Shown in pieces: positions 1 to 17,836 of a stretch of 64,000 nt of DNA (position 1 is its first letter; each line of letters begins with the position of its first letter). Source of the DNA: Pyrodictiaceae archaeon (GTDB lineage: Archaea > Thermoproteota > Thermoprotei_A > Sulfolobales > Pyrodictiaceae). The stretch is taken from contig JALVSY010000007.1 of NCBI GenBank assembly GCA_027036135.1, forward strand, positions 1,156,880 to 1,220,879, given 5' to 3'. The position numbers and the translations under genes are program-made. The notes under the pieces are model-generated. The model was not told the DNA's origin, did no database searches, and was given only the letters and a program-made list of their open reading frames with translations.

Positions 1-816
1 CCTCAGTACATCGATTATCGCCTTGTCTGGCTGGGGATCCCCTGGGTAAACACTCTCTACGCGAACCCCGCCAGCAATAGCCCCCGCGGCTAGTAGCGCT
101 GCAGCGCTACTCCAGTCACCCGGTACACGGTACCTCGTGGGCCTAGGAGAGCCCCTTGCAGCGAACCATGAGTAATCTCTGCGCTCGACCTGGGCACCAA
201 AGGCCTCGAGAACGACAACGCTTATATCAACATAGGGTCTGGACTCGAGGCCCACGACACTTATCTCTAGCTCGCTGAGCCCGGCACCGAGGAAGAGCAG
301 CGCCGACAAGTACTGGCTACTCTCCCGCGCATCAACCACGGTGCGGCCACTGGTAACCGGGCCCTGGACGACATGAGGCGGGCAACAACACCCCGAGACG
401 AGGTAACGGGCCCCGAGAACCGCCATAGCCTCGAGCAAGGGCCTAACCGGCCTCTCATGAAGCCTCCCAGAACCATAAACAAGCACAGGCTTATCGAGGA
501 GCCCTAGGACACCGGTAACAAGCCTCATAGTAGTACCAGACTCCCCCGCATCAATACACCGGGGCCAACGAAGCCCCCTGGGCCCAGGAGACTCCACGAC
601 AACCCTATCTCGGCTCCTCCGCGCCTCAGCGCCCATGGCCCTAACCGCCTCGAGAGTCGCAAGGGTATCACTACTCCACAACGGGTTCTCGATAATGCTA
701 GTACCACGAGCCAGCAACGCAGCGAGAAGAGCACGATGAGTATAGCTCTTAGAAGGAGGAGCCCTCACAACACCACTAACACTACCCGGGTAGACAACGA
801 CAGCCCTGTTACTCAT
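1..816 (-). CDS. aroA: 3-phosphoshikimate 1-carboxyvinyltransferase (EPSP synthase), N-terminal part, multiply frameshifted, runs off window start
   Basis: Manual minus-strand translation from ATG 816: MSNRAVVVYPGSVSGVVRAP, then after a one-base shift SKSYTHRALLAA; further on SRPYVDIS and YRVPGDWSSAA, all EPSP synthase motifs. Several frame breaks. Confidence 0.85.
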   Translation of the reverse strand, partial: MSNRAVVVYPGSVSGVVRAPPSKSYTHRALLAALLARGTSIIENPLWSSDTLATLEAVRAMGAEARRSRDRVVVESPGPRGLRWPRCIDAGESGTTMRLVTGVLGLLDKPVLVYGSGRLHERPVRPLLEAMAVLGARYLVSGCCCPPHVVQGPVTSGRTVVDARESSQYLSALLFLGAGLSELEISVVGLESRPYVDISVVVLEAFGAQVERRDYSWFAARGSPRPTRYRVPGDWSSAAALLAAGAIAGGVRVESVYPGDPQPDKAIIDVLR

Positions 817-972
817 TATTACACCCTAGGGACCCCATAGCGAGCTTCGTAACAAGTCCCTCTTAGGGGGCTTGTCCAGGGTTCTTCTATTACTTAGGTA
901 TACCCTAGCCTACGAGATTATATGAGTAGAGACAAGGACTATGACGGTATCGCAGCGAGCAGGTTACTAAAA

Positions 973-1536
973 CTACTCCTTTCTCCTACTGTGTTTTTCT
1001 AGGCAAAGCTCACTAAGCATCCCAGCTATGTACCTTATTACACGGTACGATAGGAGGGCCCCGAGAACCACTAGCGTGATAGAGAGGAGGATTACCTCGT
1101 AGTACGTGGTGCTCGTTAGCTTGCTCTTATAGTTGAGGGCTACTATTGGTAGTATTGCTCCGCTCACGATCACCGATAATAGTAATGGGAGGACAACAAT
1201 CAAGGCGACATGGACGCGCCTAGGCAGGAGAGCAAAACAAAGCTCCAGCTCAACCAGCCCTACCCCCTTCCTAAAAGCTCTATATAAGTACACCACGTAA
1301 GCGACAAGGAAGACCAGAACAGCAACCCCTACACCGATTAGAGAGACACGGGCCCCAAGCTCTGAGGCACCAGAGCTTCTACGAGACAACTCAAGGAAAA
1401 CATCCACAGCTATGGTAGCTATTATGCCCACGAACCCGGCTAAGAGAACTCCTTCCCGGCGACGACGAGCACCAATACCAGCAATAACACCGAAAACAGC
1501 ACCAATAATAACCAAGACAAACGAGACAGAACCCAT
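973..1536 (-). CDS. Small multi-pass membrane protein (paralog of 4178-4768 and 3560-4177); candidate immunity protein
   Basis: ORF with about 5 hydrophobic segments; GGAGG-like RBS before ATG 1536; aligns by eye with the 4178 ORF (GARRR / SARRR, GVxLV...C...xxVxVAxxVxLP). Confidence 0.75.
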   Translation of the reverse strand: MGSVSFVLVIIGAVFGVIAGIGARRRREGVLLAGFVGIIATIAVDVFLELSRRSSGASELGARVSLIGVGVAVLVFLVAYVVYLYRAFRKGVGLVELELCFALLPRRVHVALIVVLPLLLSVIVSGAILPIVALNYKSKLTSTTYYEVILLSITLVVLGALLSYRVIRYIAGMLSELCLEKHSRRKE

Positions 1537-1599
1537 CCCTAGCCCTCCAGCTTCAAACAATAATAATGACGAGATTCGGTAAAAACGGTTCTAATCAGG

Positions 1600-1788
1600 T
1601 TAGGAATGACATATAAAGAGACATATTGCTGCGTTAACCCCAGCGTCCACAAGGAGGCAGAGAACACAAGCTGGACATGTTATCTCTAACGGCGTATATA
1701 GGCAAGGGAGACAAACCCTAAGGCGTATACTAGCAATGCTCTGCATAAAGTGCTCAGCAAGACATTCTGCTACGCATTGCCGGTAACC
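1600..1788 (-). pseudogene. Cys-rich peptide cassette 1 (62 codons, 9 Cys), apparently 5'-truncated
   Basis: Manual translation: GYRQCVAECLAEHFMQSIASIRLRVCLPCLYTPLEITCPACVLCLLVDAGVNAAICLFICHS*. Internal ATG at 1746 could give a 48 aa peptide. Not in the ORF track. Confidence 0.6.
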
Positions 1789-1797
1789 TTACCGGCA
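1778..1797. repeat. Perfect 9-bp inverted repeat TGCCGGTAA-CC-TTACCGGCA
   Basis: Read directly; contains the stop codon that bounds the 5' side of Cys-rich cassette 1. Confidence 0.7.
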
Positions 1798-1896
1798 TCT
1801 ATGCATTAATCTAGCGGAATAGGCTACGAAGCCTGACAAGCTCGTAGTAGACAATGGTGAGGTGAGAGGGGACATAGCGAGACGAGGTAGAAACAA

Positions 1897-2319
1897 GTGT
1901 TAGGCAAGAAAAAGACTAGACGGAAGTGCGTAATTCACTATCCTACTATAAAGACGCTTCTCCACGCAGTAGAGAAACTAAGACAACTTTACCCAGAGGA
2001 TCACATACACGTAGTCTCTAGAAGCGCCCTAGAGGACGCTGTTTCAGCTGCTAAATTCGCCGCCACATTTACGAGAGAATCATGCAAAGAGAAGAAACTC
2101 GTAGCTGCAGCCACGCTCTTCTATGAGCTAGTAACTAGGCACCCGCTGAGCGATGGTAATAAGAGACTAGCAACAGTTGTGTTAGCAGCGTTTTTGAAGA
2201 AGAACTCGTTGAAGACACCATGGCCAGGTAGGGTTTGGAAAGTAGCTGTCCACGTAGCTACTGGCGAGTGGGATATTGAGAGAACGAAGCGCTGGCTTGA
2301 AAGAATTCAGCACGAGTAG
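1897..2319 (+). CDS. Fic/Doc family protein (death-on-curing-type toxin)
   Basis: HPLSDGNKR matches the Fic motif HPFxDGN(G/K)R; size typical of Doc. True start may be slightly downstream. Confidence 0.88.
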   Translation: MLGKKKTRRKCVIHYPTIKTLLHAVEKLRQLYPEDHIHVVSRSALEDAVSAAKFAATFTRESCKEKKLVAAATLFYELVTRHPLSDGNKRLATVVLAAFLKKNSLKTPWPGRVWKVAVHVATGEWDIERTKRWLERIQHE

Positions 2320-2325
2320 GGACGA

Positions 2326-2460
2326 CTACGCCTTGGCTGGCTTCTTAGCAGCTTTGAGATCATATTCTCTGAGCTTATCCAGGTCTTCACGGTATTCCTG
2401 TATAGCCCAGTCTATGGCTTCTCTCCACGTCACGGCTTTCTTGTGCTTCCTTGTAGGCAT
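2326..2460 (-). CDS. Small charged protein, possible antitoxin for the Fic/Doc protein
   Basis: MPTRKHKKAVTWREAIDWAIQEYREDLDKLREYD...; the EYxEDLxxL helix resembles short Doc-associated antitoxins. Convergent with the toxin. Confidence 0.45.
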   Translation of the reverse strand: MPTRKHKKAVTWREAIDWAIQEYREDLDKLREYDLKAAKKPAKA

Positions 2461-2833
2461 GGATTCCTGCCCATGTATAGGATAGAGGTGGTCTAGCTTT
2501 GAGTTTTGTGGAGTACCGTGAGGCAATCAACTATGTTTAGGTCTTATACAGGCTTTAGATCAATGGGCTAAGACGGCGCGCTTCTGCAACGCATACATTG
2601 AGCGCTCTCGCCTGCGCCTTTTATCAATACTTGCCAAGAAACGCCTAGGATGATGCACGAGAAAGCAATAATAATAATAGTAATGGATTTCAATGTGTGG
2701 TGTTGTTTCAGTTATAGTAGGCTTAATAGATAGTCTCGTAGGGGACTCGTAGCTGCTATCCATATGTCTTTTTCTGTGAGCAAGTAATCGCATATACCAG
2801 CGCGTGTAACTATATCCTATTATATGACGGTGC

Positions 2834-2934
2834 TTGAGCTATATCGAGGCCATGCTAATAGGTTGCGCAGCGTGTGTAGCGTATGTAGCAGAGTGTTCTG
2901 GTGCAACATATGGGTGCTTGCATGCTGTACTTGA
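2834..2934 (+). pseudogene. Degenerate Cys-rich peptide cassette 2
   Basis: LSYIEAMLIGCAACVAYVAECSGATYGCL; a one-base shift gives ...CCT* with TGA at 2932-2934, immediately before the GGAGGGG RBS of the next gene. In-frame stops upstream. Confidence 0.4.
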
Positions 2935-2947
2935 GGAGGGGTACCAA

Positions 2948-3298
2948 GTGAAGGAGCCCTCTACCCTCAAGCTTTTTCTCATACTTTTTGTAAAGATATT
3001 CCTACTAGTAGCGATAATATTGCACGAGTTTACTCCCTTAAATCCCGTCTTTGGCCCTATGCAGGCCGTGATAGCTCTTGCTATTATCTTTGTTCTCTCT
3101 ATAAGGAAGAGACTAGGACATTGCTTATCGTTGCTCACCGATCTCATTATAGCCTTGGACTTGTCTACGTACTTTATCGAGTTAGCGCCAAGGGAGTTCG
3201 AGGCTGCTAAGCCCTTGTTAAACCCTGGTTACTCGTTGCTCTTTCTCAGCCTAATCCTCGTGGTATTTGCACTAGCTAGGCTCATGGTGGAGGAGTGA
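2948..3298 (+). CDS. Small 4-TM membrane protein; candidate immunity protein
   Basis: GTG 2948 preceded by GAGGAGGGG; four hydrophobic segments. The ORF track fuses it to the upstream Cys-rich remnant. Confidence 0.65.
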   Translation: MKEPSTLKLFLILFVKIFLLVAIILHEFTPLNPVFGPMQAVIALAIIFVLSIRKRLGHCLSLLTDLIIALDLSTYFIELAPREFEAAKPLLNPGYSLLFLSLILVVFALARLMVEE

Positions 3299-3314
3299 AT
3301 CTTGTGCTTACTAG

Positions 3315-3497
3315 CATCCTTGCTACACCAGTAGGGGATGGGCATGGGACTCTCCGGGCTTGATACGAGATTGGCTTGTTTATGGCTTTACGTGCTACGA
3401 GGAGAGTGCAATACGGTTTCCAGAGACTTGCCTGCCCTGCCTAGCATGTGTGGGGGTAGCGGCTACGTTTTGCGCTATAGAGTGCGCACTTATCTAA
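3315..3497 (+). pseudogene. Cys-rich peptide cassette 3, apparently 5'-truncated
   Basis: Manual translation: ...LIRDWLVYGFTCYEESAIRFPETCLPCLACVGVAATFCAIECALI*; possible TTG at 3360. Shares TCxxCxxC...CxxxC with cassette 1. Confidence 0.6.
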
Positions 3498-3559
3498 TCT
3501 ATTTTGTCCTATTTTTTCTCGGGTAAGCATCTCTTTTCTCTTATCGTAGGAGGTGCGTC

Positions 3560-4177
3560 TTGGTGGGGAGAAGGCATCTTATCTATACTATTGTGGCTGC
3601 TGCTCTGGTTCTCTTGGTGGATTTAATTGGGTATCCCCGCATATTTGGTCTCGCCGATATAGTTGTTAGTGCGGTATTGATAGGTGTTGCTGTATGGGCG
3701 GCCTCGGCCTATGACCGGGGAAGGCTTGATCGCTACACCATCGGCCTCTTAGTGGCCATGGGCATCGTGTTGGCCCAGGTAATTATTTCTCTGAGTCTTA
3801 GCCCTCATAGCCTCTTCATGGTTGTGCTGGGAATGGGTATTCTCATGGGTTATCTTGTCTTTGGTGCGTTGTATTACTTGGGGCGGAGGAGGGGGCTTCG
3901 TCTCTCAGATATTAATATGTGCTCTTTGGCTGATAGGCGTGTCCTCTACGCCTCTATGCTGGCTACTCTCCTAGTCATAGTAGTAGTTGGTGGCGTTGCG
4001 TATGCTCTGCTGGCTTACTGGTATAGGGCTAGGCTTGGCCACTGCATTGCCTGGAGAGAAGCAGTTGACTGGGTAATCATCCTCATAAGCATCTATGCAG
4101 CGTACAGGCTCATGGAGTGGAGCGTGGAGAAGTGCGCAACCCTTAAGAGAGGGAGCGTGAGCCATGGGTTCTCCTGA
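3560..4177 (+). CDS. Multi-pass membrane protein; candidate immunity protein
   Basis: GGAGGTG RBS, about 6 hydrophobic segments; RGLRLSDINMCSLADRRV resembles RGVRLVQVMECIYLDRSV of the next gene. Confidence 0.75.
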   Translation: MVGRRHLIYTIVAAALVLLVDLIGYPRIFGLADIVVSAVLIGVAVWAASAYDRGRLDRYTIGLLVAMGIVLAQVIISLSLSPHSLFMVVLGMGILMGYLVFGALYYLGRRRGLRLSDINMCSLADRRVLYASMLATLLVIVVVGGVAYALLAYWYRARLGHCIAWREAVDWVIILISIYAAYRLMEWSVEKCATLKRGSVSHGFS

Positions 4178-4768
4178 GTGATTCCTAGCTTTTTGATTCA
4201 CTCATTGCACTGTAGTAGGGTGCTCGGTGGCTTGGTTGGTGTTGTCGAGGCACTGGTTATCTCCGCTGGTGTCGTCGCTGGCGTGGTGGTCGCTGTTAGT
4301 GCTAGGAGGAGGGCTTGGAGAAACTACGTTGCTGGCCTCATGGCTCTTCTCGTGACCGATGCTGTGTGGGGGCTCCTTCAGCTACGGGGCCAGGAGTATA
4401 ACGCTCCAAGTGTCATGGCGTTTATCGGGTCCTTGGCGAGCATCGCTGTACTACTCATCTACGTGCTTGTCGCCGAGCTACGTGGAGTAAGGCTCGTGCA
4501 AGTAATGGAGTGCATTTACCTGGATAGAAGCGTCCTCGTCGCAATAGTAGTTCTGCCCACGGCGCTAATATTCCTCGCCGGGGGACTAGTGGTTATAGCT
4601 GTGGTTGTTCTTAGCCCGGGGAACCAGCCATTCATAATCAACGCGGAGGTAGTGGCTCTAGCCACTGGCATGACCATCGCTGGGTTCCTCGGCGTACGCG
4701 CCTCGATAAACAAGTTATCGAGCTGCATAAGGGCGGCGAAGAAGACTAGCGGGAAGAGAAAAACATAA
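4178..4768 (+). CDS. Multi-pass membrane protein, paralog of 973-1536
   Basis: About 5 hydrophobic segments; colinear similarity with the 973 ORF. Start probably near 4232. Confidence 0.75.
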   Translation: MIPSFLIHSLHCSRVLGGLVGVVEALVISAGVVAGVVVAVSARRRAWRNYVAGLMALLVTDAVWGLLQLRGQEYNAPSVMAFIGSLASIAVLLIYVLVAELRGVRLVQVMECIYLDRSVLVAIVVLPTALIFLAGGLVVIAVVVLSPGNQPFIINAEVVALATGMTIAGFLGVRASINKLSSCIRAAKKTSGKRKT

Positions 4769-4897
4769 CAACGGTAAAAGGTCTCGAAAAGTGCCAGATG
4801 GTCTTGCTAGTCCTTGTTATCGATACAGCGCCTATCGCCTAGGGGCTCACGGCTTCCCTTGCATAGCTTCCCACGTTTTCCTCGGCGTCTTTACTAG

Positions 4898-5251
4898 CTA
4901 GTATAGCTGCTCAAGCCTCCTCGTGGCTCTGAGGAAGAGCTTTGCCCTGTTTTCATCAACTACTATGAGGTTTATTGGGTAGTCCCAGGGCAGTCCAAGC
5001 CTGAATGCCTCATCCCATATCCTTATGGAGGCCTCGATGAGGTCTCGGCTACTATGCCTCCCTGGAAGTATTACTAGGATATCGACGTCGCTTAGCGCGG
5101 TATAGGTTCCTTCGGCCACGCTTCCTATGAGGTATACGCGTGCGCTTGGCGCAATCCTCTTCACGGCCTCGACTACGTATCTTGCGTAGTGTCTCCACTC
5201 GCGTAGGAGCCTAAGCCTCTCCAGCGCTAGCTTCTCCCATGTTAGTTGCAA
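4898..5251 (-). CDS. Minimal nucleotidyltransferase (MNT) antitoxin
   Basis: VYLIGSVAEG...SDVDILV motif; overlaps the HEPN gene. Confidence 0.9.
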   Translation of the reverse strand: MQLTWEKLALERLRLLREWRHYARYVVEAVKRIAPSARVYLIGSVAEGTYTALSDVDILVILPGRHSSRDLIEASIRIWDEAFRLGLPWDYPINLIVVDENRAKLFLRATRRLEQLY

Positions 5252-5666
5252 GCCTCTCCACCTCCTCCAGGAGGCTCCACAGCCTCTTCGCTACCGAGAC
5301 GAGCTTGGAGGCAAGCTCATGGTCGTATTCCAAGTGGCCATACCTGGTAAGCGTGTAGGCATCCTCGAGTGCCCCGAGTAGGCTGCGATAAGTCCTAGTG
5401 AACTCGTCTATCCTTTCGGCGGCCTGGACTAGGCCTGCCCGGAGCAAATTATTCCTCATCAAGCCCAGCAGCCATCTAACACTATGACTGCGTGGCGTAA
5501 CGCCCCAGAGTCTATAAATAATTGCTTTTAGCCTGAGCTGCACAGCTTGTTCAGCATTAAACACAGCTAGATCATACTCTCCTTTCCCGAGAAGGTCTTC
5601 GGCAAGGCTCAAGAATGCACGGGCCCGTCTAGCTAGTAGCCTATAGTAGTCACCACTCATAGCCAT
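5211..5666 (-). CDS. HEPN domain protein
   Basis: YDLAVFNAEQAVQLRLKA, RSHS, LEDAYTLTRY; RBS GGAGG before ATG 5666. Confidence 0.9.
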   Translation of the reverse strand: MAMSGDYYRLLARRARAFLSLAEDLLGKGEYDLAVFNAEQAVQLRLKAIIYRLWGVTPRSHSVRWLLGLMRNNLLRAGLVQAAERIDEFTRTYRSLLGALEDAYTLTRYGHLEYDHELASKLVSVAKRLWSLLEEVERLATNMGEASAGEA

Positions 5667-5743
5667 GCCTCCAAGGAAAATATTGACGAGGTGTAGCGGG
5701 GTTATGCCAAGTAAATAGTAAATCCTATGGGTAATTATTGTTT

Positions 5744-6970
5744 CTATGTACATAGAGTCTCAAGTGATTTAACGATTTGCTTGTACATTTCCTCGAGTCC
5801 TTGGCGAGGTTCTCCCTGTTTCTCCTTGCTTTCTTCATCTCTATAGGTTTCCTCGGGCCTAGCAGTATATGTTTCGTAGAGTAGTTTGAGTATGGCTACT
5901 CTAGTGACCCTGTTAGCTGGCGCGATGACGCTGGGGATGCCTATGCCTCCGCCTCCGCAGCCGTGGTGGCAGCTTGTGTTGCACTCCCTGTTCCAGCCAT
6001 AGATCCCTAGGTATCTTGGGTCGCCGTATTGTAGTATGTTTTCCTGTACGAGCTTCTCTACGAGTTCTCTATAATTGTTTGCTTCATCGGCTCCTAGAGA
6101 GGTTTGGGCAACCTGGTAGAGCAGGGCTGTGGTATTCGGGGTTTCCCGGGCTATGTCTCTGAGCCTGAGAATGGCTTGCTCATATAGCGCGCATACTTTG
6201 TCAACGCCGTAGGCGCGCGTGGATAGTAGTAGCTGTGGATGCCCACCAATAACCTCCATTAATTCCCTGTCTATTCCGTATTCCCTTGCCAATGCCTCGG
6301 AGTCCCTTAGCGTCATCTCGCCGAGGTAGAACGGGACAACGTAGAGAGGGCTAATAGGGCTACGCAATGCCCGGAGGCAAAAAGCATAGTCACTCGTAAC
6401 CATTACGAGCTTCGCTCCCAGGCCCTCTAGGGCTAACTCGTGCTGAATATCTGCAACAAGCTTGATGAAGCCACGTATAGCCTCGTCCTCTAGGCTGAGC
6501 AGGTACTGGGCCTCATCAATAACTATGACTGTGCCCTTCTCGCTGCTCTTGGCAGCTAGCCTTAGGAGAAACCTATAGTACTCCTCCACTCCCTGCCTAT
6601 AGAAGAGGCTCACTATGCCACTAAGCTCCTGCTCGGCCCCAAGAACTTTCTCAACGAGGACGCCTAGCCCAAGCTCAGCTGCAACCCTCTTAACGAGGCT
6701 ACCAGCTATCCCTAGGCTGCGCACCACGCCCCCCAATAGCTCCTCGAGAACCTTTTCCCGGCTCACCGGGCCAAGGCACTGCAGCGCTACATACGCTGTG
6801 CCATAGCCCTCGTTTCGCAGCTTCTCAGAGCCTCTAGGACGAGCCTCGTCTTACCTATACCACTAGGGGCCGTAGACTAGGACAACGTCCTTAGGGCTCT
6901 CAAGCGACGGTCTAATGTACTTAACTAGGCGCCTAAGCTCGCAGACTCGGCTAACGAATCTCTCTGTCAA
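5744..6970 (-). CDS. Archaeal AAA-type ATPase (ATPase_2-like), two compensating frameshifts near 6866 and 6825
   Basis: Manual extension upstream of the 5744-6766 ORF gives FVSRVCEL...VYGP|SGIGKT (Walker A across a shift); Walker B IVIDEAQ and IGGHP within the ORF. Confidence 0.75.
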
Positions 6971-7095
6971 CTCTCCTCTTGTCCCCACTACGTTATTCCT
7001 AGCAAGCGAGTACCTAATAGCCTGAACTAGGCACAATAAGAGACTAAATAGAGAGCCCCTGCGATATCAGGCAGTGCTAAGGAGGGATAAGTTAC

Positions 7096-7986
7096 TTGGC
7101 CGCCGAGCGTGCTAGTGCCAGGGCTCACGCGGGTCTTGGCATTATTAATGCTATTGGCTCTGGAGGCTTTGGGGCCGCGACTGCCCTGGATCTATGGCTG
7201 CGCCTAGAGGCTTGGCGGTGCAATAGCAGCGGGGGCTACGTGGTTACTCGTGGCGAGCGCGTCGAAGTAGCTAGGGACATACTTGACTCAGTGACCAGTG
7301 TCGTCTCCGAGTACGCTGGCCGCGGCCTCCCGGGGCTGTGTACGAGGGGCTGGTCAGAGATACCCCTCGAGGCTGGGCTTAAGGGGAGTAGTGCCCTCAT
7401 AAACGCGCTGATACTGGCAGCGCTGGAGCTTGTGGGGGCTAGTGATCCTGGGCTGGAGATGTTGGCGAGGCTGGGGGTTAGGGCGGCGCGGCTAGCAGGC
7501 CTAACAGTCACAGGGGCTCTTGACGATCACCTCGTGGTCAGTGGGTGCGGTACCTACCTCACAGATAACCCTGGGCAACGAGTACTGGGCCACCTCGATG
7601 GCCCGGAGCGCTTCGTGGCGATAATTGTCCCGGGTAGGAGGAGTATAAGGAGCATAGAGCCAGGAGAGTTCCGCGCCTATGCTCCGCTCTACCTTGTTGC
7701 TTGGAGGCTCCTAGAGAAAGGAGAGTGGGGCCCAGCAGCCCTGGTCAATGGTGTCGCGACGAGCCTGGCGACGAGCACTTCTCCGAGAACCCTAGTAGAC
7801 CTAGTAGACATGGGCGCTGAGACAGCAGGGGTCTCGGGCAAGGGGCCAGCAATCTACGCGGTCACGGAGACCAGGGAGAAGGCCGAGAAAATAGCAACGG
7901 TTATGCAGAGAAAACATGGCGGCGAGGCACTTGTCACGCACACAATCCCGTGCACCGCGCAAAAGAGGAGAGAACCCTCTAGCTAG
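7096..7986 (+). CDS. aroK: Archaeal shikimate kinase (GHMP family)
   Basis: GIINAI, SEIPLEAGLKGSSA, TVTGALDD, GVSGKGP motifs. Confidence 0.9.
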   Translation: MAAERASARAHAGLGIINAIGSGGFGAATALDLWLRLEAWRCNSSGGYVVTRGERVEVARDILDSVTSVVSEYAGRGLPGLCTRGWSEIPLEAGLKGSSALINALILAALELVGASDPGLEMLARLGVRAARLAGLTVTGALDDHLVVSGCGTYLTDNPGQRVLGHLDGPERFVAIIVPGRRSIRSIEPGEFRAYAPLYLVAWRLLEKGEWGPAALVNGVATSLATSTSPRTLVDLVDMGAETAGVSGKGPAIYAVTETREKAEKIATVMQRKHGGEALVTHTIPCTAQKRREPSS

Positions 7987-8881
7987 GGGCTACGAGTTCC
8001 TCCTCGGTCCCCAATGCACCCTTCTCGCCTATGCCCGCGCCCACGATGAATGGCTTGTGGCCGAGCACCGGGACCAGTATGCGCGCAGCGCGCTCAGCAG
8101 CCCCGGGGCCGCCTCCAACTATGACTAGGTGGCCCAGGTACGGGTCAACACCAGCACCGATAGCCCCCTCCTCTAGCGCGGCCTTCCTAGCCTTATCCAC
8201 GGCCTCGGCCACCACAGCGTCCCACGGCGATGGCTGGGAGAGGAACCCTTGCGGCCTCTCGTCCCAGCCACCGCTAGCGACGTGGCCGATTAGCGCCCCT
8301 AGCCCGGTAACGATTTGCCTCACCCGGTCAATAGTCACCATTACCTCCTCGCCTCGGGGCAGCTCTGCTCCAGCCTCAACAACATAGATGCTCCACGAGG
8401 GTCTACCCGGTAGCCTCGCATAGAGCGCGGGATTCTCTGAACCAGCAGCCACCCCGCCATAGAGCGCAGCAGCGACTAGAGGAGCCATCGGGGACCCTGC
8501 GGCCTCAGCAACCACGCTGTTAAGAACCCTGGCAAGATCCATGGGCGCAGGCTCAACGCCTAGTAAGTTGATAAGGGCAGCAGCGACCCCGGCGACAACA
8601 GAGGCCACGGGGCTCAGGCTCGGAGACGCGAGCCAAAGCCTTACCCGGAGCCGAGCCTCCTCACCCATCTCCTCCAAGAGCCTAGAAGCAGCCAAGTAAG
8701 CAGCCCGGGCCACGGTCCCAGTAGCCCCGCTAACCTCTACACTGATACCCTCCTCGCCGAGAAGCTCTACTACAACACGGGCCTCTACACGGTCAAGGGC
8801 AGCTCCGAGTGCCCCCGCTGCGATGCCTGGGAGAGAGACGACGCTCGGAGCGAGGGATGTGTAGCTCTTGACAGAAGCCAT
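7979..8881 (-). CDS. Divergent GHMP-kinase fold protein (homoserine kinase-like)
   Basis: Overall layout and VAAALYGG, ALEEGAIGAG resemble homoserine kinase, but the PxxxGLGSS loop is degenerate. RBS supports ATG 8881. Confidence 0.55.
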   Translation of the reverse strand: MASVKSYTSLAPSVVSLPGIAAGALGAALDRVEARVVVELLGEEGISVEVSGATGTVARAAYLAASRLLEEMGEEARLRVRLWLASPSLSPVASVVAGVAAALINLLGVEPAPMDLARVLNSVVAEAAGSPMAPLVAAALYGGVAAGSENPALYARLPGRPSWSIYVVEAGAELPRGEEVMVTIDRVRQIVTGLGALIGHVASGGWDERPQGFLSQPSPWDAVVAEAVDKARKAALEEGAIGAGVDPYLGHLVIVGGGPGAAERAARILVPVLGHKPFIVGAGIGEKGALGTEEELVAPS

Positions 8882-9099
8882 GAACCAGATCCCTCCTGAA
8901 CCGGAGCGGGTGCTCGGATCCCTAGTAGCCTCTAGGACTAGGATGCGCAGGGTATACGCGTGCTCCATGCAATATATGGCGTAGCTTTCCCTAATTAATA
9001 CTAACCAGTCCGCCACTGGAGAAGAACGCTGGCATGGAGAAGGGGCAAGGAGTCAGCGACAAAAAACTAGTAAGATGCTTCTTGGGGGCTCCCACTTGT

Positions 9100-12000
9100 C
9101 TATATGACTACAGCTGTCAGTTCTAGTGGCAGTATTGACCAGTAGAAGAAGTAGTTTGTTGAGCTACAGCAAGTATTACCAACAGCCGTTACTGGTATTC
9201 CGTCTATACTTACGGCATACGATAGTGCATAGTTACCTGGTGTTGCTGTCCACTTAGCCTTAATATATAGTGTTGCCATTAGTATTGTTGTGCGCCAGTA
9301 ACTTGAGGCGAAAGTCCTTAACGTCTTTGTATAGAAGTATTTGCTGAACACTCTGGAGCCACCATAGTAAATGCTTGTTCCTATACGCTTTAGGAATTCA
9401 TTGGTCGATGTTATTGCTAGGCTTGGGTTGCTCAGCCTAGCTGGCATATATACTACGACTCTGGTATATATACCATAGCCCTTGCTGAGATACAGCGTCT
9501 GCGGATATATTCTTACTAGTACAGGTGTTATCTTTATAGTAAATGGCTCCTCTAGGCTCTTGCCGCTGAACTGTATGTTTCTAACAACTATTCTGTAAAC
9601 GCCTGGACCACTTATTGGCACTATAATTCTCGCATATCCAGGTACTGGTTCGTCAAAGGGCATTTTGAAATCGAGCGTTAGCTTTGCGCCGAGCTGGAGC
9701 CCGTGCACTACCATCGTCTTAACAGGGTACAGGTGTGCACCATTACTATCAGTATATGTCTTTGCGCCTATAATGGCCATGTGGTACTTATAGGGACCAT
9801 ATACTTGTATGTCAAGATTACTTGCGTAGTTCTTATCACTTACAGGCCACGACAGCTCTACTAGTAGGTATTTTATCGAAGGACTAGTAACTATTAGGGG
9901 GAATACCCTCCAATCGCCGCTTTCATATCTCCAAGTATAGTCAAAGACTCCTCTTAGATAGTAGTTCTGGTATAGGTTCTTTCTATCTATCCAGCTATAT
10001 CTCTTATAGCTTATTACTACACCATTGCCTATTGATGAGAGCTTATAGGCGTTGACGATGGTCGTTGGCACTAATACCTTATTGTGACTGAATATATTCT
10101 CTACCACAACGTAGCCTTCCTCAATACCTTTAATCGGTATTCCAAGGGTTCTTACTGGAAGATATGTTGTGCCTCTCACATATACAAATGAAGTCATAGG
10201 TAATATGCTGTACCATCTTGTGAACCTATAGCCCTCTATCCTCACAAGAGCATATGTTTTTGCACCAGTACCGCTCCAGCTGTTGCCGAAGACTCTATAA
10301 ACGAGCACTAGTTTCACGGGATAGTTTTCAACATTAATACCCGTATAAAGGCTCACTAGCTTCTTGATTTCAGCTATTTGGTATTTTAGATTTGCCACTT
10401 GTAAGTGGAAGCTGTTTGCACCTCGCAAGTCATACTGGATTCTGGCAGTTTCCCACGGCTCTATTTTACCATCATGGTTTAGGTCTATCCATGCCCACAG
10501 CTCTATACCGTTAAATAATATTCCCTTAGAATAGTTGCTGTATCTACCACTTGTATTGAAGTATTTGAATGGATATGCTAGACTTATTTCAATCATGTTA
10601 TACTTTTCGTATACAGCTGGGTTAATGATAGCTAATACTCTTGTATCGATATAACTCATTTTACCAAGGTCTAATAGCACTCTACCATTAATACAACGTG
10701 TCATCATAGTCACGCCAGGAGCGCCGCAAAGGCTGTGGCTGAAGACAAGCGTAGGCTTGACGGCATATACATGGTATATACCGTGACCATGTATTACTAA
10801 TGTCTCACTTCGTAGCCCAAGACTTGGAACAAATATCAGCTTTGGCTCATACCAGCTTAGCTCCACTGAACTTCCTTTACCATATGTAAATGCTGATATA
10901 TCATCATCCAGTAATACGTGATAAGCCTTCATAAAGTCCTTGTTATAGACTAGTGTTCCTTCTCCTCTTACTAGCTCGACAGCCCTAAGGGCATCAACGA
11001 AGCCAGCTCCCTGGCTAAATGGGTCAAACCCCGTATCATATGCACTATTCATCAATACGGTCTTTAGTAAAGGTGCTGGCATTCTGGCCCCATTATGTAG
11101 TTCCTTATACATTGTTACAACCAATGCAGCTACGCCAGCGGCCATTGGTGTTGCTTGACTAGTACCTCCAAAGAGATTAAATGCTAAGAAACCACTAAGA
11201 TGCCCCCATGTTAATGAATCCCATGGTCTTCCAACAGCGAAGGCAAAGCTCCCTATAGCTACTATATCTGGCTTTGATAGAAATGTCTCAGCAGGTCCTC
11301 GATCGCTCCAAGATACTATCTCCTTGTTGCCTCCTGGTAAGTACCCGAAGAGCGGTCTATAAGTGAACTCGGTGGCAGCACCCACGGTTATTACCATACT
11401 TGCTGCTCCAGGGACTGTTACAGTACCCCAACCAGGACCACCATTACCAGCTGCAACGAAGTCGGCTGTACCGCTAATAGCACTTGTATAATCAAATATC
11501 AAGCTGACAGGATCCATGCCGCTAGCCCAGCCCCATAAAGCCCAGGCGCTTATGCCGTAACTATTGCTGGTCTCATCAACTTGATGTCTACCAGTATATG
11601 TCCATGTCCACATCCCTCCCGCAAACGCTGTCCATGGATTCTGTGTACCGGGTACCGGCTCTACGAAGTATGGCTTACCATATGGTGTTTTCTCGTCGAA
11701 ACCGCTAAAGAAATACACCGATGTCAGTACATTTCCTAGCCATAGCGCAGAGGCAGCAGCTATCTTAGCCTCGGGTGCCTCGCCAGTAACTATGCTCCAG
11801 CCATTGTTTATGGGTCCATATCCTGTATAGGCGTAAACAGGGCGCCCAGCAGCAGTTGTTGCACAGAACGTTCCATGACCATAGAAATCATACTCTAAGT
11901 CAAAGTATTGCCCGCTCCATATATCCATGCCAGGCCAGATATAGCCAAGGCTTTCAAAAGTCCATGTATCCCATAGAAGTGATGAAGATATAGCATATCC

Positions 12001-13470
12001 TTCTTGTAGTTTGTTCATGATATGTTCCAGTACTCCTTTCTCCTGCATTAATATTAATCCTAAGGCGTCATTTACGTATCCAGCCAATGTGCCTACGCTG
12101 AAGTCGTAATACCCATCTCCGTTTATATCAAGTGCTGCTATTTCGTGTCCATAACGTATTGGGGTCTCGTTAGCAAAGCTATAGATAGGCCTCGATACAG
12201 GTGGAGGCGGGAAGTAGCTTGCAAGCCCGCACTCACTCGCAGCCTCATAAAGATAGTAGTAAGCAGTCTTCATATCAAGCAATATGGTGTCGTAGTACCC
12301 GTCTCCATTACTGTCATAAATTATTGCAGGGACAGTAAATGCTATTTTTCCTATAGGTGTATCTAGTACCCTTACTACAAGACCAAAATGAGGTGGTACA
12401 CGGGACTTAGTCACATTTACTGGTACTTGCCAGTATTCTGACAAGTTATAGATCACTTGACAACTACCAACAGAGGCGAATCCTTTATTATACTTGAATA
12501 CATATATTGGTGGCACGAAGAAGTAAAGTTTGCTTAGATTAACGTAGACATAACTGGAGTTTACTGGTACTGCCGCCACGGGCGTCAGCACTAGCCCATA
12601 CTCGTCGGAGTCGAGGATCAATGGTATACCATTGCTATCCCTCGCTATTGCGTCTAGGCCTAGGCCTGGGCTAGCATAATCCACACCAGTATCTATTATG
12701 GCTATTGTGGCGTTTTGGCCCATGTCGCCGTACTTGTACCACACATCTATAGCCTTTGTTATATTAACCGTGTAGTGTATTGGGCCGAACCCGCTACCCT
12801 CTGTCGGCAGAACTGCTGGGTTCTTTAGGCTAGGCTTCTGCTTTGCAAGCTTCTCGGCCTTAGCAAGATCTATGCTTGGCCTCTTGCCTTCAACAAGCTT
12901 CTCTAGTGCTATCTTGTCCCCTCTCCCTAGTAGCTCTTCTAGGGCCTTCTTGACCTTGGCCTTATCTACTGCATATATTGGCTTGCTTGTCGAAGCTAGC
13001 AGCTCGTCTATCCTTACATCTGGGAGTATTGCTGCTACAAAGCCGAGCCTCGATATCTTATCAATACTTGTCGGGGTAACCCAGCCAGCGACAACAGTGT
13101 AGAGATGCGTCGGGTAGACACCGGTTATCACCATGTACCTTGCTAGCTCCCTGATGTCCCTGAGGCTAACACCCTTTGGTAGGAGTAGTAGAGCCCTCGC
13201 ATATGGCTCCTTGGGCTTCTCCAGCTTGATGTGGGCGTGCTCGGCGAACTTCTCGGCAAAGTCTAGCACCGGGTCAAGTATACGACTCGTTGTCAGCGCT
13301 CCTTTTTGCCAGAAAGCCTTGCTGCGGAACGCTGGGTGGACGTAGGTTGTTAAGTGGTACTTGGGCTTAATAGTTGCGGCCGATGCTGGCGCGAACATTG
13401 CTGCATAGGGTAGAACCATGACGGCTACGACTATGACTGCGAAGAGTACGCGTAGAACATGTGGCCTCAT
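9100..13470 (-). CDS. Large secreted S8 (subtilisin/pyrolysin-like) serine protease
   Basis: Signal peptide; catalytic motifs IIDTGVD, GHGTFCA, AAGNGGPG, GTSQATP; large insert between the Asp and His motifs. Confidence 0.93.
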   Translation of the reverse strand: MRPHVLRVLFAVIVVAVMVLPYAAMFAPASAATIKPKYHLTTYVHPAFRSKAFWQKGALTTSRILDPVLDFAEKFAEHAHIKLEKPKEPYARALLLLPKGVSLRDIRELARYMVITGVYPTHLYTVVAGWVTPTSIDKISRLGFVAAILPDVRIDELLASTSKPIYAVDKAKVKKALEELLGRGDKIALEKLVEGKRPSIDLAKAEKLAKQKPSLKNPAVLPTEGSGFGPIHYTVNITKAIDVWYKYGDMGQNATIAIIDTGVDYASPGLGLDAIARDSNGIPLILDSDEYGLVLTPVAAVPVNSSYVYVNLSKLYFFVPPIYVFKYNKGFASVGSCQVIYNLSEYWQVPVNVTKSRVPPHFGLVVRVLDTPIGKIAFTVPAIIYDSNGDGYYDTILLDMKTAYYYLYEAASECGLASYFPPPPVSRPIYSFANETPIRYGHEIAALDINGDGYYDFSVGTLAGYVNDALGLILMQEKGVLEHIMNKLQEGYAISSSLLWDTWTFESLGYIWPGMDIWSGQYFDLEYDFYGHGTFCATTAAGRPVYAYTGYGPINNGWSIVTGEAPEAKIAAASALWLGNVLTSVYFFSGFDEKTPYGKPYFVEPVPGTQNPWTAFAGGMWTWTYTGRHQVDETSNSYGISAWALWGWASGMDPVSLIFDYTSAISGTADFVAAGNGGPGWGTVTVPGAASMVITVGAATEFTYRPLFGYLPGGNKEIVSWSDRGPAETFLSKPDIVAIGSFAFAVGRPWDSLTWGHLSGFLAFNLFGGTSQATPMAAGVAALVVTMYKELHNGARMPAPLLKTVLMNSAYDTGFDPFSQGAGFVDALRAVELVRGEGTLVYNKDFMKAYHVLLDDDISAFTYGKGSSVELSWYEPKLIFVPSLGLRSETLVIHGHGIYHVYAVKPTLVFSHSLCGAPGVTMMTRCINGRVLLDLGKMSYIDTRVLAIINPAVYEKYNMIEISLAYPFKYFNTSGRYSNYSKGILFNGIELWAWIDLNHDGKIEPWETARIQYDLRGANSFHLQVANLKYQIAEIKKLVSLYTGINVENYPVKLVLVYRVFGNSWSGTGAKTYALVRIEGYRFTRWYSILPMTSFVYVRGTTYLPVRTLGIPIKGIEEGYVVVENIFSHNKVLVPTTIVNAYKLSSIGNGVVISYKRYSWIDRKNLYQNYYLRGVFDYTWRYESGDWRVFPLIVTSPSIKYLLVELSWPVSDKNYASNLDIQVYGPYKYHMAIIGAKTYTDSNGAHLYPVKTMVVHGLQLGAKLTLDFKMPFDEPVPGYARIIVPISGPGVYRIVVRNIQFSGKSLEEPFTIKITPVLVRIYPQTLYLSKGYGIYTRVVVYMPARLSNPSLAITSTNEFLKRIGTSIYYGGSRVFSKYFYTKTLRTFASSYWRTTILMATLYIKAKWTATPGNYALSYAVSIDGIPVTAVGNTCCSSTNYFFYWSILPLELTAVVI

Positions 13471-13765
13471 ATGCCCACACCCTTTTATTACCGCTGTTAA
13501 CACGGAATAATATTAAATTACCCATATAAATGCATCGCCGAGGCCCTAAGAGGGGAGACAATAACATATCCACGGTATACTGGGTCAGGGTGAGCAGTTC
13601 CACCCATATCTATGAGTACTCGGTGCCGCTAGGCGGGAACTAAGCAGTGTGCTCATTAACCTCGGAGCAGCAGCGCCATGGATGCGTGCTATTCCTGGCG
13701 GAATACAGTGGTAACTCTGCTGTGATACTGAGCGGCCTTGGCCAAGCCCTTGGCTATCTGGCGGT

Positions 13766-14038
13766 TTGCTTCAAAGGGTAATACATGGCAAAGATAATGT
13801 CATGGGGTGTGCACTGGTCTTGACGAGGCTCACACTCTATGCCCCAGGCGAGGAGAACGCCTCGCTAAGGGAGATTGCCGAGAAGCTCCAGAAGCTTGGC
13901 TACCACGTAGAGATGCGCGTAGCCTATGACGTATCGGGCCCTGTCCTCGTAGGTCCTTTTGGTAAGGTAAAGGGGCTTAAGGAGATAATGATCATTATGC
14001 GGCAGCTAGAGGCTAGTGATAGGGGCATCGAAGGCTAA
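13766..14038 (+). CDS. Small hypothetical protein
   Basis: 90 aa ORF with plausible composition; no family recognised with certainty. Start uncertain. Confidence 0.5.
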   Translation: MLQRVIHGKDNVMGCALVLTRLTLYAPGEENASLREIAEKLQKLGYHVEMRVAYDVSGPVLVGPFGKVKGLKEIMIIMRQLEASDRGIEG

Positions 14039-14077
14039 TCTATTACTTGCTTATATTTGCACCGAGTCTTTTGGTAG

Positions 14078-15202
14078 CTAGCTCCAGAAGAGCTTTATGA
14101 GGAATCGGAGTAGTTGTTCTAGTTCCCTGTAGTATTTCTCTAGGCCTTCAACCCTGGAATAGAACGAGATGATATAGGCTGGGTCATGTAGACCAGTATT
14201 AGGCGTGTAGACTAGCTTGGCGAGGCTCACTAGCTCTGATACGAGGTAGCTCACCGGGTGCCTCGACACAGCAGCGGCGAGCACCATTACTGCTAGGAGG
14301 GCCAGTGCACCGCCTATGGCCACCTTGCCCCAGTTGATGCCCTTCATGGCTGCCTTTGCCGCGGAGTAGCCAAGGTTGTAGCCCAGGAGCCCTATCAACC
14401 ACGCAATAGCAGCAGTCATGGCTGCCTCTAGGCCGAGGCCCGGGTTCTCAATCCTCAGTGCCCGGAGAATTCCCTGAGCAACTGGATACGCTAGCGGGGA
14501 GACAAAGAACCCAACGAGTACTCCCAGGACCCTGGGGAAGACCCGGTGGTACCACGTCTCCATTCTCTCCACAGCGCTTCTCTCGAGGCGTAGCTGCTCC
14601 TCAATCATTCTCTCAACGGCGTAGCCGGGGCTCGCTAGTGCCTGGAGTAGTGGCGCTACTAGGCGGGAGGAGACCCAATAGACTATGCCGAGCATAGAGG
14701 TGTAAAGGATTATCCTCACCACTATGCTTCTAGAGGCTAGTTTCCAGAACTCAGAGAGGGCTCCGGGGAGCTGAATGGAGAGCAGGGAATCGTAGAGCCT
14801 TGCTAGTAGCAGTGAGCCTAGATAGGCAGAGGCCAGCAAGGAGCCATAGATGACCGAGAGGCTCGCAATGGTGGCGTACCGGCAAGTGGTGCTGCACTCC
14901 CTCTTGGCCGCTAGGCCCCTCTCCGAGAGTAGCTCGTAGCCGGCCTCGAGGACTAGTGATGCGAGGACGAGGCCGAGCACAGTGCCTAGTCCCCGGGGGT
15001 TCTGAGCAACAGCCACGGCTGAGGCGATAATGGCTACTCCTAGCCCGAGCCGTGGCCTAGCAATAGCGGCTACCAGCGCTGTGGAGGCGAGCAACGCCTC
15101 TGCTACGAGGAGCCCGGGGAACAACAATGCAGCAGAGTAGGCGGCTAGCACCGCGACCGCTACCACTACCAGTATCCTCGTAACTAGCCTAGCCTCGGCC
15201 AT
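14078..15202 (-). CDS. Hypothetical multi-pass membrane protein
   Basis: Many hydrophobic segments; overlaps the DUF58 gene in an operon. Confidence 0.75.
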   Translation of the reverse strand: MAEARLVTRILVVVAVAVLAAYSAALLFPGLLVAEALLASTALVAAIARPRLGLGVAIIASAVAVAQNPRGLGTVLGLVLASLVLEAGYELLSERGLAAKRECSTTCRYATIASLSVIYGSLLASAYLGSLLLARLYDSLLSIQLPGALSEFWKLASRSIVVRIILYTSMLGIVYWVSSRLVAPLLQALASPGYAVERMIEEQLRLERSAVERMETWYHRVFPRVLGVLVGFFVSPLAYPVAQGILRALRIENPGLGLEAAMTAAIAWLIGLLGYNLGYSAAKAAMKGINWGKVAIGGALALLAVMVLAAAVSRHPVSYLVSELVSLAKLVYTPNTGLHDPAYIISFYSRVEGLEKYYRELEQLLRFLIKLFWS

Positions 15203-16560
15203 GTCCCCATCAGCCTCGCGTACTCAACTAGGCGCGCCAGCTCGCGGAGAACAATGCTCGGCGAGGAGTGGAGGACGGGGACTCCCTGGCCCTGTAGCTC
15301 CTCGGCGACAAGGGCCTGTTGCCTAGCAATGCCAAGGGCCTCGAGCCCGCTAAGAGGGTCTCTTACCGCCCCCGGTCTCGGGATAACGACTAGTACTGGG
15401 GTGCCTCGGCGCCTCGCTACACGATAGACCTCGTCGCTGAAGCGCCTCGCAGCCTCAGCGCTAAGACCCATATCGGTGACAAGAACTATGGCTGATTGGC
15501 TCCGTGGAGCTAGGCGCAGCAGGTCGCGGTAGAGACCAATAGTCTCGCTCGGTGCCCGTGGATAAGCTGTGCTTGGCCAAACTGTGCGTTCAGCTAATAA
15601 CTTATTGGCGTGGATAAGTGCCCGCCGGCCCCGTAGCCACCTTGTATAGTGGATCCTCCTCCCAGTAGCGGGTATAACAGCGGCCCGGACGACGTCGCCT
15701 CGGAGACCACTATAGGCCACGAGGCCGGCCACGAGCCGAGCGCCCTGCTCGAGAGGCGTGGCTCCGAGAGGTCCCTGGAACATCGTAGGAGACTCGTCGA
15801 GAACCACTATGAGCCTAACGATGCCTTCTTGCTCGAACACCTTTACTGCTAGTCTCCTCGTCCGCGCATAGGCCTTCCACTCTATGAGTCTCATATCGTC
15901 CCCTGGCTGGTATTCCCGTAGCTCGAGGAACTCTACGCCAACGCCACGCCTACGTGTACCCGCGACGCCACCCGGCTGATAGACAAGCGTTGCTGCTGCT
16001 CTGCGCCTCGGCAGCGGGGGCACCATTGGCTGGACACTCACCGTCGTGGAGGAGCCAATTCTCTGAGTGGCCCTAAGCAGGCCCAGCGGGTCTAGGCTCT
16101 CCACCTTGACGGGGCCCCACTCGTGCCTACCAATCACGGGCTTAACAACATAAGCTATCTCCACGCCGCCCTTGGCTGGTATGAGCGTAGCTGTACGGGG
16201 AGGCTTCTCGGCGACGAAGAGCCCCGGGGGCTCATCAGCTATAACCGTGTTGTCCAGCGCTACTAGGCTATCATTGACTACTCGTAGCCTTATAGTGGCC
16301 GCCTTGCCCTCGGTTAGGGGCTCAGGCACTATTCTCTCGACGCGTAGCCCGGCTATGACAGAGGACTTTACTGAGACGAGGTAAGCGGCTATGAGCATGT
16401 ATGCTAGCAGGGCTAGGCTAGCTGAGAGAAGAGCAGAGGCTAGGCGGGTATCTGGCTGAATAATCCCGGCAGCGCCCAGGGTGAGGGCTAGGGCTAGGAA
16501 TAAGCGGCCACAATGAGTCATCGCGACCGAGCCGCCTATGCCGAACCCTGTGTTAGCCAA
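15184..16560 (-). CDS. DUF58 domain protein (vWA-like, MoxR-associated)
   Basis: GVEFLELREYQPGDDMRLIEWKAYAR and LDESPTM motifs. Confidence 0.92.
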   Translation of the reverse strand: MANTGFGIGGSVAMTHCGRLFLALALTLGAAGIIQPDTRLASALLSASLALLAYMLIAAYLVSVKSSVIAGLRVERIVPEPLTEGKAATIRLRVVNDSLVALDNTVIADEPPGLFVAEKPPRTATLIPAKGGVEIAYVVKPVIGRHEWGPVKVESLDPLGLLRATQRIGSSTTVSVQPMVPPLPRRRAAATLVYQPGGVAGTRRRGVGVEFLELREYQPGDDMRLIEWKAYARTRRLAVKVFEQEGIVRLIVVLDESPTMFQGPLGATPLEQGARLVAGLVAYSGLRGDVVRAAVIPATGRRIHYTRWLRGRRALIHANKLLAERTVWPSTAYPRAPSETIGLYRDLLRLAPRSQSAIVLVTDMGLSAEAARRFSDEVYRVARRRGTPVLVVIPRPGAVRDPLSGLEALGIARQQALVAEELQGQGVPVLHSSPSIVLRELARLVEYARLMGTWPRLG

Positions 16561-17834: not shown

Positions 17835-17836
17835 AG

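Follow-up and report, generated by a model that had tools for sequence, protein, structure and literature searches.

An orphan array of Cys-rich tip relics and intact membrane genes in a Pyrodictiaceae archaeon, probably derived from a polymorphic archaeocin-like system

In a Pyrodictiaceae archaeon (assembly GCA_027036135.1; 2,205,677 bp in 40 contigs, 99.6% complete), a stretch of 64,000 nucleotides (nt), the window (positions 1,156,880 to 1,220,879 of contig JALVSY010000007.1), contains three short Cys-rich open reading frames (ORFs), each followed by a small membrane gene. Archaeal polymorphic toxins have reportedly been predicted, and the halocin C8 family widened, in a survey by Makarova et al. 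in 2019. The survey is cited in that sense in passages of PMC8416519 and bioRxiv 10.64898/2026.07.27.741052. Halocin C8 itself is cut from the C-terminal end of a haloarchaeal precursor, ProC8. According to passages of the bioRxiv paper, immunity resides in the N-terminal part (HalI) of this same precursor. In bacteria, the contact-dependent inhibition (CDI) and Rhs loci (CdiA-CT/CdiI and Rhs-CT/RhsI pairs) combine a conserved body with a tip that switches sharply at a short conserved motif and with a tip-specific gene directly downstream; they also hold orphan modules, made of a tip and its downstream gene, that keep a stub of the sequence preceding the motif. We show below that the window locus shares features with both, and we think that it is probably an orphan array of a polymorphic archaeocin-like system, whose membrane genes would be retained immunity genes.

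The three Cys-rich stretches turned out to be related to the C-termini (tips) of a family of proteins found in related archaea, in which a conserved N-terminal part (the carrier) is separated from the tip by a short junction motif. Relic 1 aligned with residues 85-161 of one such protein, P0025, at positions 1839-1609 and across an in-frame stop (77 amino acids (aa), 35% identity, E 1.6e-7 in a composition-corrected search of the whole genome; E 1e-12 without the correction in a 7.3-kb database). It was also the top match of P0025 in a phmmer search of the 46,697 ORFs of the genome (E 1.6e-7). The stop-to-stop frame could be aligned over its full length with three type-5 tips (P0025, P0026, and P0010), starting at the residue that follows the junction, and the alignment continued upstream, past a TAA that occupies the position of the junction Asp, into 16 residues of the conserved pre-junction stretch. 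Relic 2 was matched by P0012, a protein with a type-1 tip, through residues 228-253 and 255-324 (joint E 9.6e-5 in the whole genome; E 4e-9 without composition correction in the 7.3-kb database), and this was the only match of P0012 in the genome at E<=1. Relics 1 and 2 thus retain 16-26 residues of the conserved pre-junction region. Relic 3 corresponds to the second half of a type-5 tip, about 20 residues of the first half and two Cys being lost (P0026; phmmer E 2.4e-3 among the 46,697 ORFs, tblastn E 0.026 genome-wide). When 88 tip queries were run against the same ORFs, relics 1 and 3 were the only Cys-rich matches. None of the relics had a match in Pfam or NCBIfam. The coordinates are collected in Table 1.

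Table 1. Features of the array, of the insertion that carries it, and of the flanking genes (positions in the window)
Feature	Coordinates	Strand	Description	Basis
EPSP synthase gene (aroA), its start	1-816	(-)	left flank of insertion	
Insertion	817-7095		contains the array and, besides, Doc/Fic and HEPN-MNT genes and a split ATPase	spacing in relatives; Pfam
M1	973-1536	(-)	187 aa, M family, intact; putative immunity gene of relic 1	M-family hidden Markov model (HMM), E 2e-65
Relic 1	1600-1839	(-)	pre-junction remnant (1792-1839), TAA (1789-1791), complete type-5 Cys-rich tip (1603-1788), stop (1600-1602)	
Relic 2	2635-2947	(+)	type-1 tip, degenerate: remnant of the junction and the region before it (2635-2712), a single frameshift, tip with 4 in-frame stops (2714-2923)	
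Mc2	2948-3298	(+)	116 aa, hydrophobic; putative immunity gene of relic 2	hydrophobic segments
Relic 3	3304-3497	(+)	shortened type-5 tip, GTG start at 3304	
M2	3560-4177	(+)	205 aa, M family, intact; putative immunity gene of relic 3	homologue in genome G121
M3	4232-4768	(+)	178 aa, M family, intact, without a tip of its own; putative extra or orphan immunity gene	paralogue alignment
GHMP-type kinase gene	7096-7986	(+)	right flank of insertion	

One may suspect that the frames are open by chance and merely fill the spacers of membrane genes that have nothing to do with each other: they are short and lack clear starts, and the local sequence is T/G-rich, with TGY codons common in two frames. 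They are, however, the genome-wide top matches of the tips of a protein family, which already contradicts this explanation, and the pairing of a tip with a membrane gene recurs in another family of the order. When all six frames of the genome were scanned for the Cys motif C..C..C.{5,13}C...C, moreover, 8 matches at just 5 places were obtained, two of these being the frames of relics 1 and 3. We therefore give hardly any weight to a chance origin, and the end motif that the first-pass annotation had seen in both frames is real. The scan also caught an extremely Cys/Arg/Gly-rich open frame at 57694-57792(+), which probably reads a G+C-rich gene in an alternative frame.

That annotation had described three cassettes, each made of a Cys-rich frame and a membrane gene on the same strand. 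For cassettes 1 and 3 this was correct: the frames (1603-1788(-) and 3315-3494(+)) exist and end 63-65 nt before the gene. The borders of cassette 2 had to be redrawn: the frame given as 2834-2934 mixes two frames, 2934 being the stop of ORF 2824-2934 and 2834 the start of another. The frame with the homology is ORF 2834-3298, which has no stop before its membrane part; the relic itself begins at about 2635, and the Cys-rich stretch that had been noticed is its tail. This tail reads into Mc2 because relic 2 has lost its own stop. In one related strain, an extra base behind 2939 uncouples the frame of relic 2 from Mc2. Two starts also needed correction: relic 3 begins at GTG 3304 rather than at 3315, and M3, previously placed at 4178-4768, more likely starts at TTG 4232 than at the alternative GTG 4178, because its four database homologues (78-98% identity) begin at the equivalent of about 4226-4232.

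Are these frames still genes? One may imagine that they encode stand-alone Cys-rich tail-anchored peptides (48, 45, or 64 aa) which, together with the membrane protein, form a two-gene module or an intracellular toxin/antidote pair. In a related strain, relic 3 is indeed an intact 64-aa ORF running from GTG 3304 and preceded by a Shine-Dalgarno (SD) sequence (P0005, 93% identity); in the window the same frame is broken, with one G fewer in a G-run near 3352-3355. The TAA stop of relic 1 is changed to TAG in strains and so is kept as a stop, the indels listed among strains fall outside the frames 1603-1746 and 3360-3497, and genes of the Doc/Fic and HEPN-MNT types adjoin the array. (The strain variants rest on the 40 of 535 differences and 12 of 39 indels that were listed.) Against this, the homology to the tips begins before the candidate starts; in relic 1 it continues across one stop, in relic 2 across four stops plus a frameshift, and relic 3 lacks the part of the domain mentioned above. 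The internal starts, ATG 1746 in relic 1 and TTG 3360 in relic 3, have no SD, and P0005 differs from the window by 2 amino-acid changes over 45 aa, which gives no signal of constraint. Live small genes are thus very unlikely. Because the homology runs across these stops and the frameshift, the three frames are, as far as the sequence tells, decayed tip relics.

The parent family was reached through a weak match to the M proteins (see below) in the relative G015, two genes downstream of a 328-aa ORF annotated as hypothetical protein Pyrde_1410 of Pyrodictium delaneyi. Its product comprises a signal peptide, a domain in which N-x-S/T sequons abound, and a hydrophobic C-terminus of about 75 aa with 12 Cys. 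The same layout is found throughout the family (about 300 aa): a signal peptide, a conserved glycosylation-rich domain, a D-x-x-W-x-C junction, and a hypervariable Cys-rich hydrophobic C-terminus. The carrier takes up about 250 aa, of which about 200 form the conserved, N-glycosylation-rich beta/alpha domain; the tip (60-90 aa) is strongly hydrophobic and predicted to be helical. Among 1.84 billion representatives, 92 matched the family at E<=1e-3 and 45 at E<=1e-10. They come from Pyrodictiaceae, from other families of the same order, and from metagenome-assembled genomes (MAGs) of Archaeoglobales. Of 351 genomes of the window's class, 14 had a family match, including that of the same-genus relative G004 but not the genome of the window.

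A type-5 tip is carried behind a signal peptide and the conserved domain in P0098 (310 aa), P0010, P0025, and P0026, so that full-length, presumably secreted proteins ending in the Cys motif, which had been predicted from the window, do exist. P0099 has a type-5 tip as well. Such proteins exist in relatives only: no full-length family gene was found among the 46,697 ORFs of this genome, the best family-HMM match having an E of 0.36. The idea that the frames are orphan C-terminal tips of a secreted Cys-rich precursor is nevertheless largely supported, by the homology just described as well as by the polymorphic junction, the orphan fragments in relatives, and the tip with an adjoining M2 homologue in genome G121, all described below.

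The conserved domain belongs to no Pfam family (0 of 43 members; none in the G015 protein). An AlphaFold2 model of the carrier was confident at residues 48-252, where it shows an eight-stranded sheet and two long helices, and poor for the tip. Foldseek found no match to it in the PDB at E<=0.001; the best VIA match (Z 5.8) was within noise, and we do not trust a match to TipC2, the TelC-immunity protein, at Z 5.6. Scans of genome and metagenome contigs with the carrier family and with M3 relatives gave no relative; one bacterial match came up, which is probably spurious. We also noted a longer branch of carriers (418-637 aa) with an N-terminal rhodanese domain (P0059, P0074, P0078, P0080, P0083, P0091, P0093, and P0094); in some of these, a domain that is not Cys-rich stands at the C-terminus in place of the tip.

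The position where the carrier ends and the tip begins is marked by near-invariant residues. In an alignment of 64 members (residues 253-258 in the G015 protein), 60 of 61 sequences had the junction Asp and 58 of 60 had a Cys five residues on, frequently with a Trp in between; nowhere else is the family as conserved as at this Asp and this Cys. Such conservation suggests that the D-x-x-W-x-C junction is a processing site, and one may speculate that self-cleavage possibly takes place there. Up to the junction the sequences are conserved, and past it they are unrelated. The G004 protein and P0010 are identical at 156 of 165 positions before it (95%) and at 18 of 57 after it (32%); for P0006 and P0098, the identities are 62% before and 28% after. 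Clustering of the last 60 residues of 78 Cys-rich C-termini yielded 29 tip types. Comparison of five of these types by hhalign, including type 5 with the C8-like type, gave no scores better than those of reversed controls. Relics 1 and 3 are of type 5 and relic 2 is of type 1. Orphan tip fragments were also found in the relatives G027, G074, and G076. In G027 (C1:1077000-1091000), positions 2695-4900 contain the main gene, a membrane gene, an orphan half-tip (4267-4485), and a second membrane gene paralogous to the first; this is the same orphan layout as in the window, here behind a live gene.

How does this family compare with the systems described previously? Like ProC8, its members are presumably secreted precursors, about 280-330 aa long, and their last 60-90 residues form a Cys-rich hydrophobic peptide, the window containing only the C-terminal pieces. 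Among the 65 members scanned (of 92), the tips of two passed the cut-off (24) of TIGR04449, the halocin C8 domain model (P0029, 44.7 bits; P0042, 33.3 bits), and three more scored below it. NCBI names the members of the P0029 and P0042 clusters, which are from Archaeoglobales MAGs, 'halocin C8-like domain-containing protein'. The analogy with halocin C8 therefore has a sequence basis at the level of the family. Unlike halocin C8, the tip types of the window (5 and 1) and the Pyrodictium protein do not match TIGR04449. The N-terminal domain is also devoid of PF22862 (Hac8_like_N; 0 of 43 members at E<=0.05, and nothing at E<=10 in the G015 protein), and the signal peptide is, by eye, Sec-like rather than twin-arginine. 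Another difference from ProC8 is that one conserved N-terminal domain carries at least 29 tip types and is followed by separate, type-specific membrane genes.

This last feature is shared with CdiA-CT/CdiI and Rhs-CT/RhsI, as are the conserved body, the sharp switch at a short conserved motif, and the orphan modules with a pre-junction stub. Unlike in CDI and Rhs loci, the carrier is small and has only a signal peptide, with no type V or type VI secretion system or Rhs shell; the tips are not enzymes but Cys-rich peptides of membrane type; the proteins with a putative immunity function span the membrane several times; and the orphan array of the window is not accompanied by any main gene. Our literature search, which did not extend to the survey by Makarova et al., found no paper on the carrier family, its junction, the diversity of its tips, the M family, or orphan arrays in this lineage. 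Halocin C8, bacterial orphan-module loci, and predicted archaeal polymorphic toxins are already known, and the novelty of the family is uncertain.

The membrane genes of the window, in contrast to the relics, are intact, as the first-pass annotation had stated, and all four are preceded by an SD, a strong one in the case of the M genes: GGAGGG located 8 nt upstream of ATG 1536 for M1, GAGGAGGGG located 7 nt upstream of GTG 2948, which is probably its own start, for Mc2, and GGAGGTG ahead of TTG 3560 for M2; M3 is SD-led as well. M1, M2, and M3 are paralogues (30% identity to M1) and the only members of the M family in this genome. This family is characterized by a length of about 180-220 aa, 5-6 hydrophobic helices, a loop motif R-R-G-x-x-L...C...D-R, and a C-terminal Cys, all of which are present in M1, M2, and M3. 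Mc2 does not share these traits and lies outside the family, the M HMM giving nothing with it at E<=1. Two Cys are conserved in the M family, an invariant one on a short helix and a second one near the C-terminus. In the AlphaFold2 model of M1 (mean predicted local distance difference test score 71), five long helices are accompanied by the short helix bearing the invariant residue, Cys100; the model had no match in the PDB.

None of the four proteins matched Pfam or NCBIfam, and the M family is very narrow, with 4 matches for M3 and 2 for M2 among 5.8 billion proteins. A search of the ESM Atlas for M2 returned scores of at most 0.83 and no lead. In other strains, the membrane genes of the window are 74-98% identical. 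Being intact, SD-led, and conserved, they appear to be the only part of the array that is functional in this genome, their function being putative.

The link between tips and membrane genes could be assessed in relatives. A hydrophobic ORF on the same strand was found at most 250 nt downstream of 13 of 15 full-length family genes. Homology between these downstream ORFs was detected in 4 of 20 pairs of genes that share a tip type, against 0 of 100 pairs that do not, a count that is suggestive, of weak to moderate strength, because the genomes are kin. The M profile matched in 8 of the 351 genomes of the class, and we sorted the eight M loci outside the window according to their context. In G121, which belongs to another family of the order, the M homologue (220 aa, contig 91) begins 53 nt after a type-5 tip; its alignment with M2 extends over 200 aa at 30% identity (E 5e-22, small database). 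In G004 it is the third gene behind a family gene with another tip, and in G015 the second gene behind such a gene, and frameshifted. In G108, G111, and at a second locus of G121 (contig 162), it stands alone, and in G003 it is a fragment at a contig edge. The eighth locus, in G019, is a deletion scar (C1:1222748-1226011, oriented 1417-1797), an in-frame fusion between the first codons for the carrier's signal peptide and the C-terminal half of an M gene; both the carrier gene and the gene next downstream are gone from G019.

A pairing of this kind would also be expected of a surface or recognition system, in which a glycosylated protein has a variable Cys-rich membrane anchor that pairs with a partner (M or Mc2) for kin recognition or adhesion; the window would then hold decayed anchors and their partners. 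The IdsD/IdsE identity pair of Proteus follows a comparable logic. The hydrophobic, predicted helical tips, the abundance of N-glycosylation sequons in the carrier domain, and the covariation of partner genes with tip type are all compatible with such a role; the two conserved Cys of M could pair with the Cys-rich tip, and no export or lysis machinery was seen at the family loci. However, the tips of two members pass the domain model of a bacteriocin, halocin C8, the near-invariant junction motif suggests processing rather than a plain anchor, and retained immunity accounts better than a structural partnership for orphan modules and for partner genes that stand alone. We therefore regard a surface-recognition role as rather unlikely.

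Returning to an orphan array of a polymorphic archaeocin-like system, the explanation that we consider probable, the observed homology, architecture, polymorphism, relic state, and synteny would fit together as follows. The carrier would be a secreted precursor with an exchangeable Cys-rich hydrophobic tip. That the tip may be a secreted membrane-active peptide is suggested by the halocin C8-like domains of some tips and by the ProC8-like layout of the precursor; it would be released, much as halocin C8 is cleaved off the C-terminal end of ProC8, or would insert into competitor membranes. The product of the gene just downstream, a small membrane protein, would neutralize its own tip type in the membrane of the producer. 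We take these proteins, rather than the carrier, as the immunity factors, because one conserved carrier cannot be a specific antidote to 29 types. In the window, three decayed tip modules would be left and no carrier gene, each module being followed by an intact, SD-led membrane gene, with M3 in addition. The relic tips would serve at most as recombination stock, which is possible because two of them keep a pre-junction piece, and the retained M1, Mc2, M2, and M3 would protect the cell from neighbours that still make these tips.

Several findings weigh against this explanation, and the first three below are the main cautions. At 3 of the 8 M loci outside the window (G108, G111, and the second locus of G121), M stands without any tip or carrier domain within 1.5 kb; M could thus have a role of its own. 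Membrane homologues lacking an upstream Cys-rich ORF had been named at the outset as evidence that would speak against orphan tips with immunity genes, and these loci are of that kind. Secondly, relic 3 might be translated in the related strain where its 64-aa ORF is intact, as it has both an SD and a GTG start there. Thirdly, variant statistics are weak: the ratio of synonymous to nonsynonymous differences is 6:3 in M2, 3:6 in M3, and 3:3 in relic 1 among the 40 of 535 differences listed, without a clear signal of purifying selection. Furthermore, the covariation count is weak, the kin genomes not being independent, and in the sole example of an intact context, G121, the carrier gene is split by a frame break. 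TIGR04449 gave nothing at E<=10 with relics 1 and 3, ORF 2834-3298, or the G015 protein, nor a match at E<=0.01 with the type-5 proteins P0010, P0025, and P0026. Finally, killing, secretion, cleavage, and protection (immunity) are, for every member of the family, functions that we infer.

A wider proposal can be put forward tentatively, as a possibility that we consider slightly less likely than not: hyperthermophilic archaea (Pyrodictiaceae, their relatives in the order, and Archaeoglobales) may run a polymorphic peptide-weapon system of their own, with a small glycosylated carrier, a conserved D-x-x-W-x-C junction for processing, dozens of unrelated Cys-rich membrane-active tips, and private membrane shields, whose cassettes are reshuffled and stored up as orphans. 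In that case, halocin C8 would be one branch of a much wider system, and the window would represent a cell that has kept only the shields. Antagonism among hyperthermophilic archaea has hardly been studied at the molecular level; if the proposal is true, a compact carrier, tip, and shield system would set who kills whom in vent communities, and the lone characterized halocin C8 would be tied to a broad cassette principle that has hitherto been known from the CDI and Rhs loci of bacteria. Each tip and its neighbouring gene make a directly testable pair, and one member of the family is encoded by a cultured organism, Pyrodictium delaneyi. As far as annotation is concerned, three Cys-rich small ORFs are explained as gene relics, and there is now a rationale for four unannotated membrane genes.

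The array is part of an insertion between aroA and a GHMP-type kinase gene. These two genes are 6,279 nt apart in this genome, compared with 119-157 nt, in head-to-head arrangement, in all three complete relatives that have both (G004, G015, and G019), which is why we consider 817-7095 as inserted. We had considered a low-GC island and dropped this idea, since the G+C content of the insertion (0.50) matches the genome mean (0.497); its origin can therefore not be read from composition. At the flanks of the insertion, the only repeats were short, chance-like matches. Rfam gave nothing relevant in 700-7200, and there were no tRNAs in 1-20000.

Other genes of the insertion lie between or directly after the members of the array. 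A Doc/Fic gene at 1897-2319(+) (Pfam Fic, E 1e-7) is located between relics 1 and 2. The sole small ORF near it, 2326-2526(-) (66 aa), is convergent and outside an operon with it, so that no obvious antitoxin partner is present. Directly after the array come a nucleotidyltransferase (MNT) gene at 4898-5251(-) and a HEPN gene at 5211-5753(-), which overlap by 41 nt and form a typical HEPN-MNT toxin-antitoxin pair. They are followed by an AAA-type ATPase that appears to be split into 5744-6766(-) (340 aa, with weak AAA matches) and 6863-7036(-) (57 aa, ending in a P-loop-like sequence), and that is probably a broken gene. Beyond the kinase gene, a 1,467-aa ORF with a subtilase domain (Peptidase_S8) occupies 9100-13503(-), a stretch with a lower G+C content (0.44).

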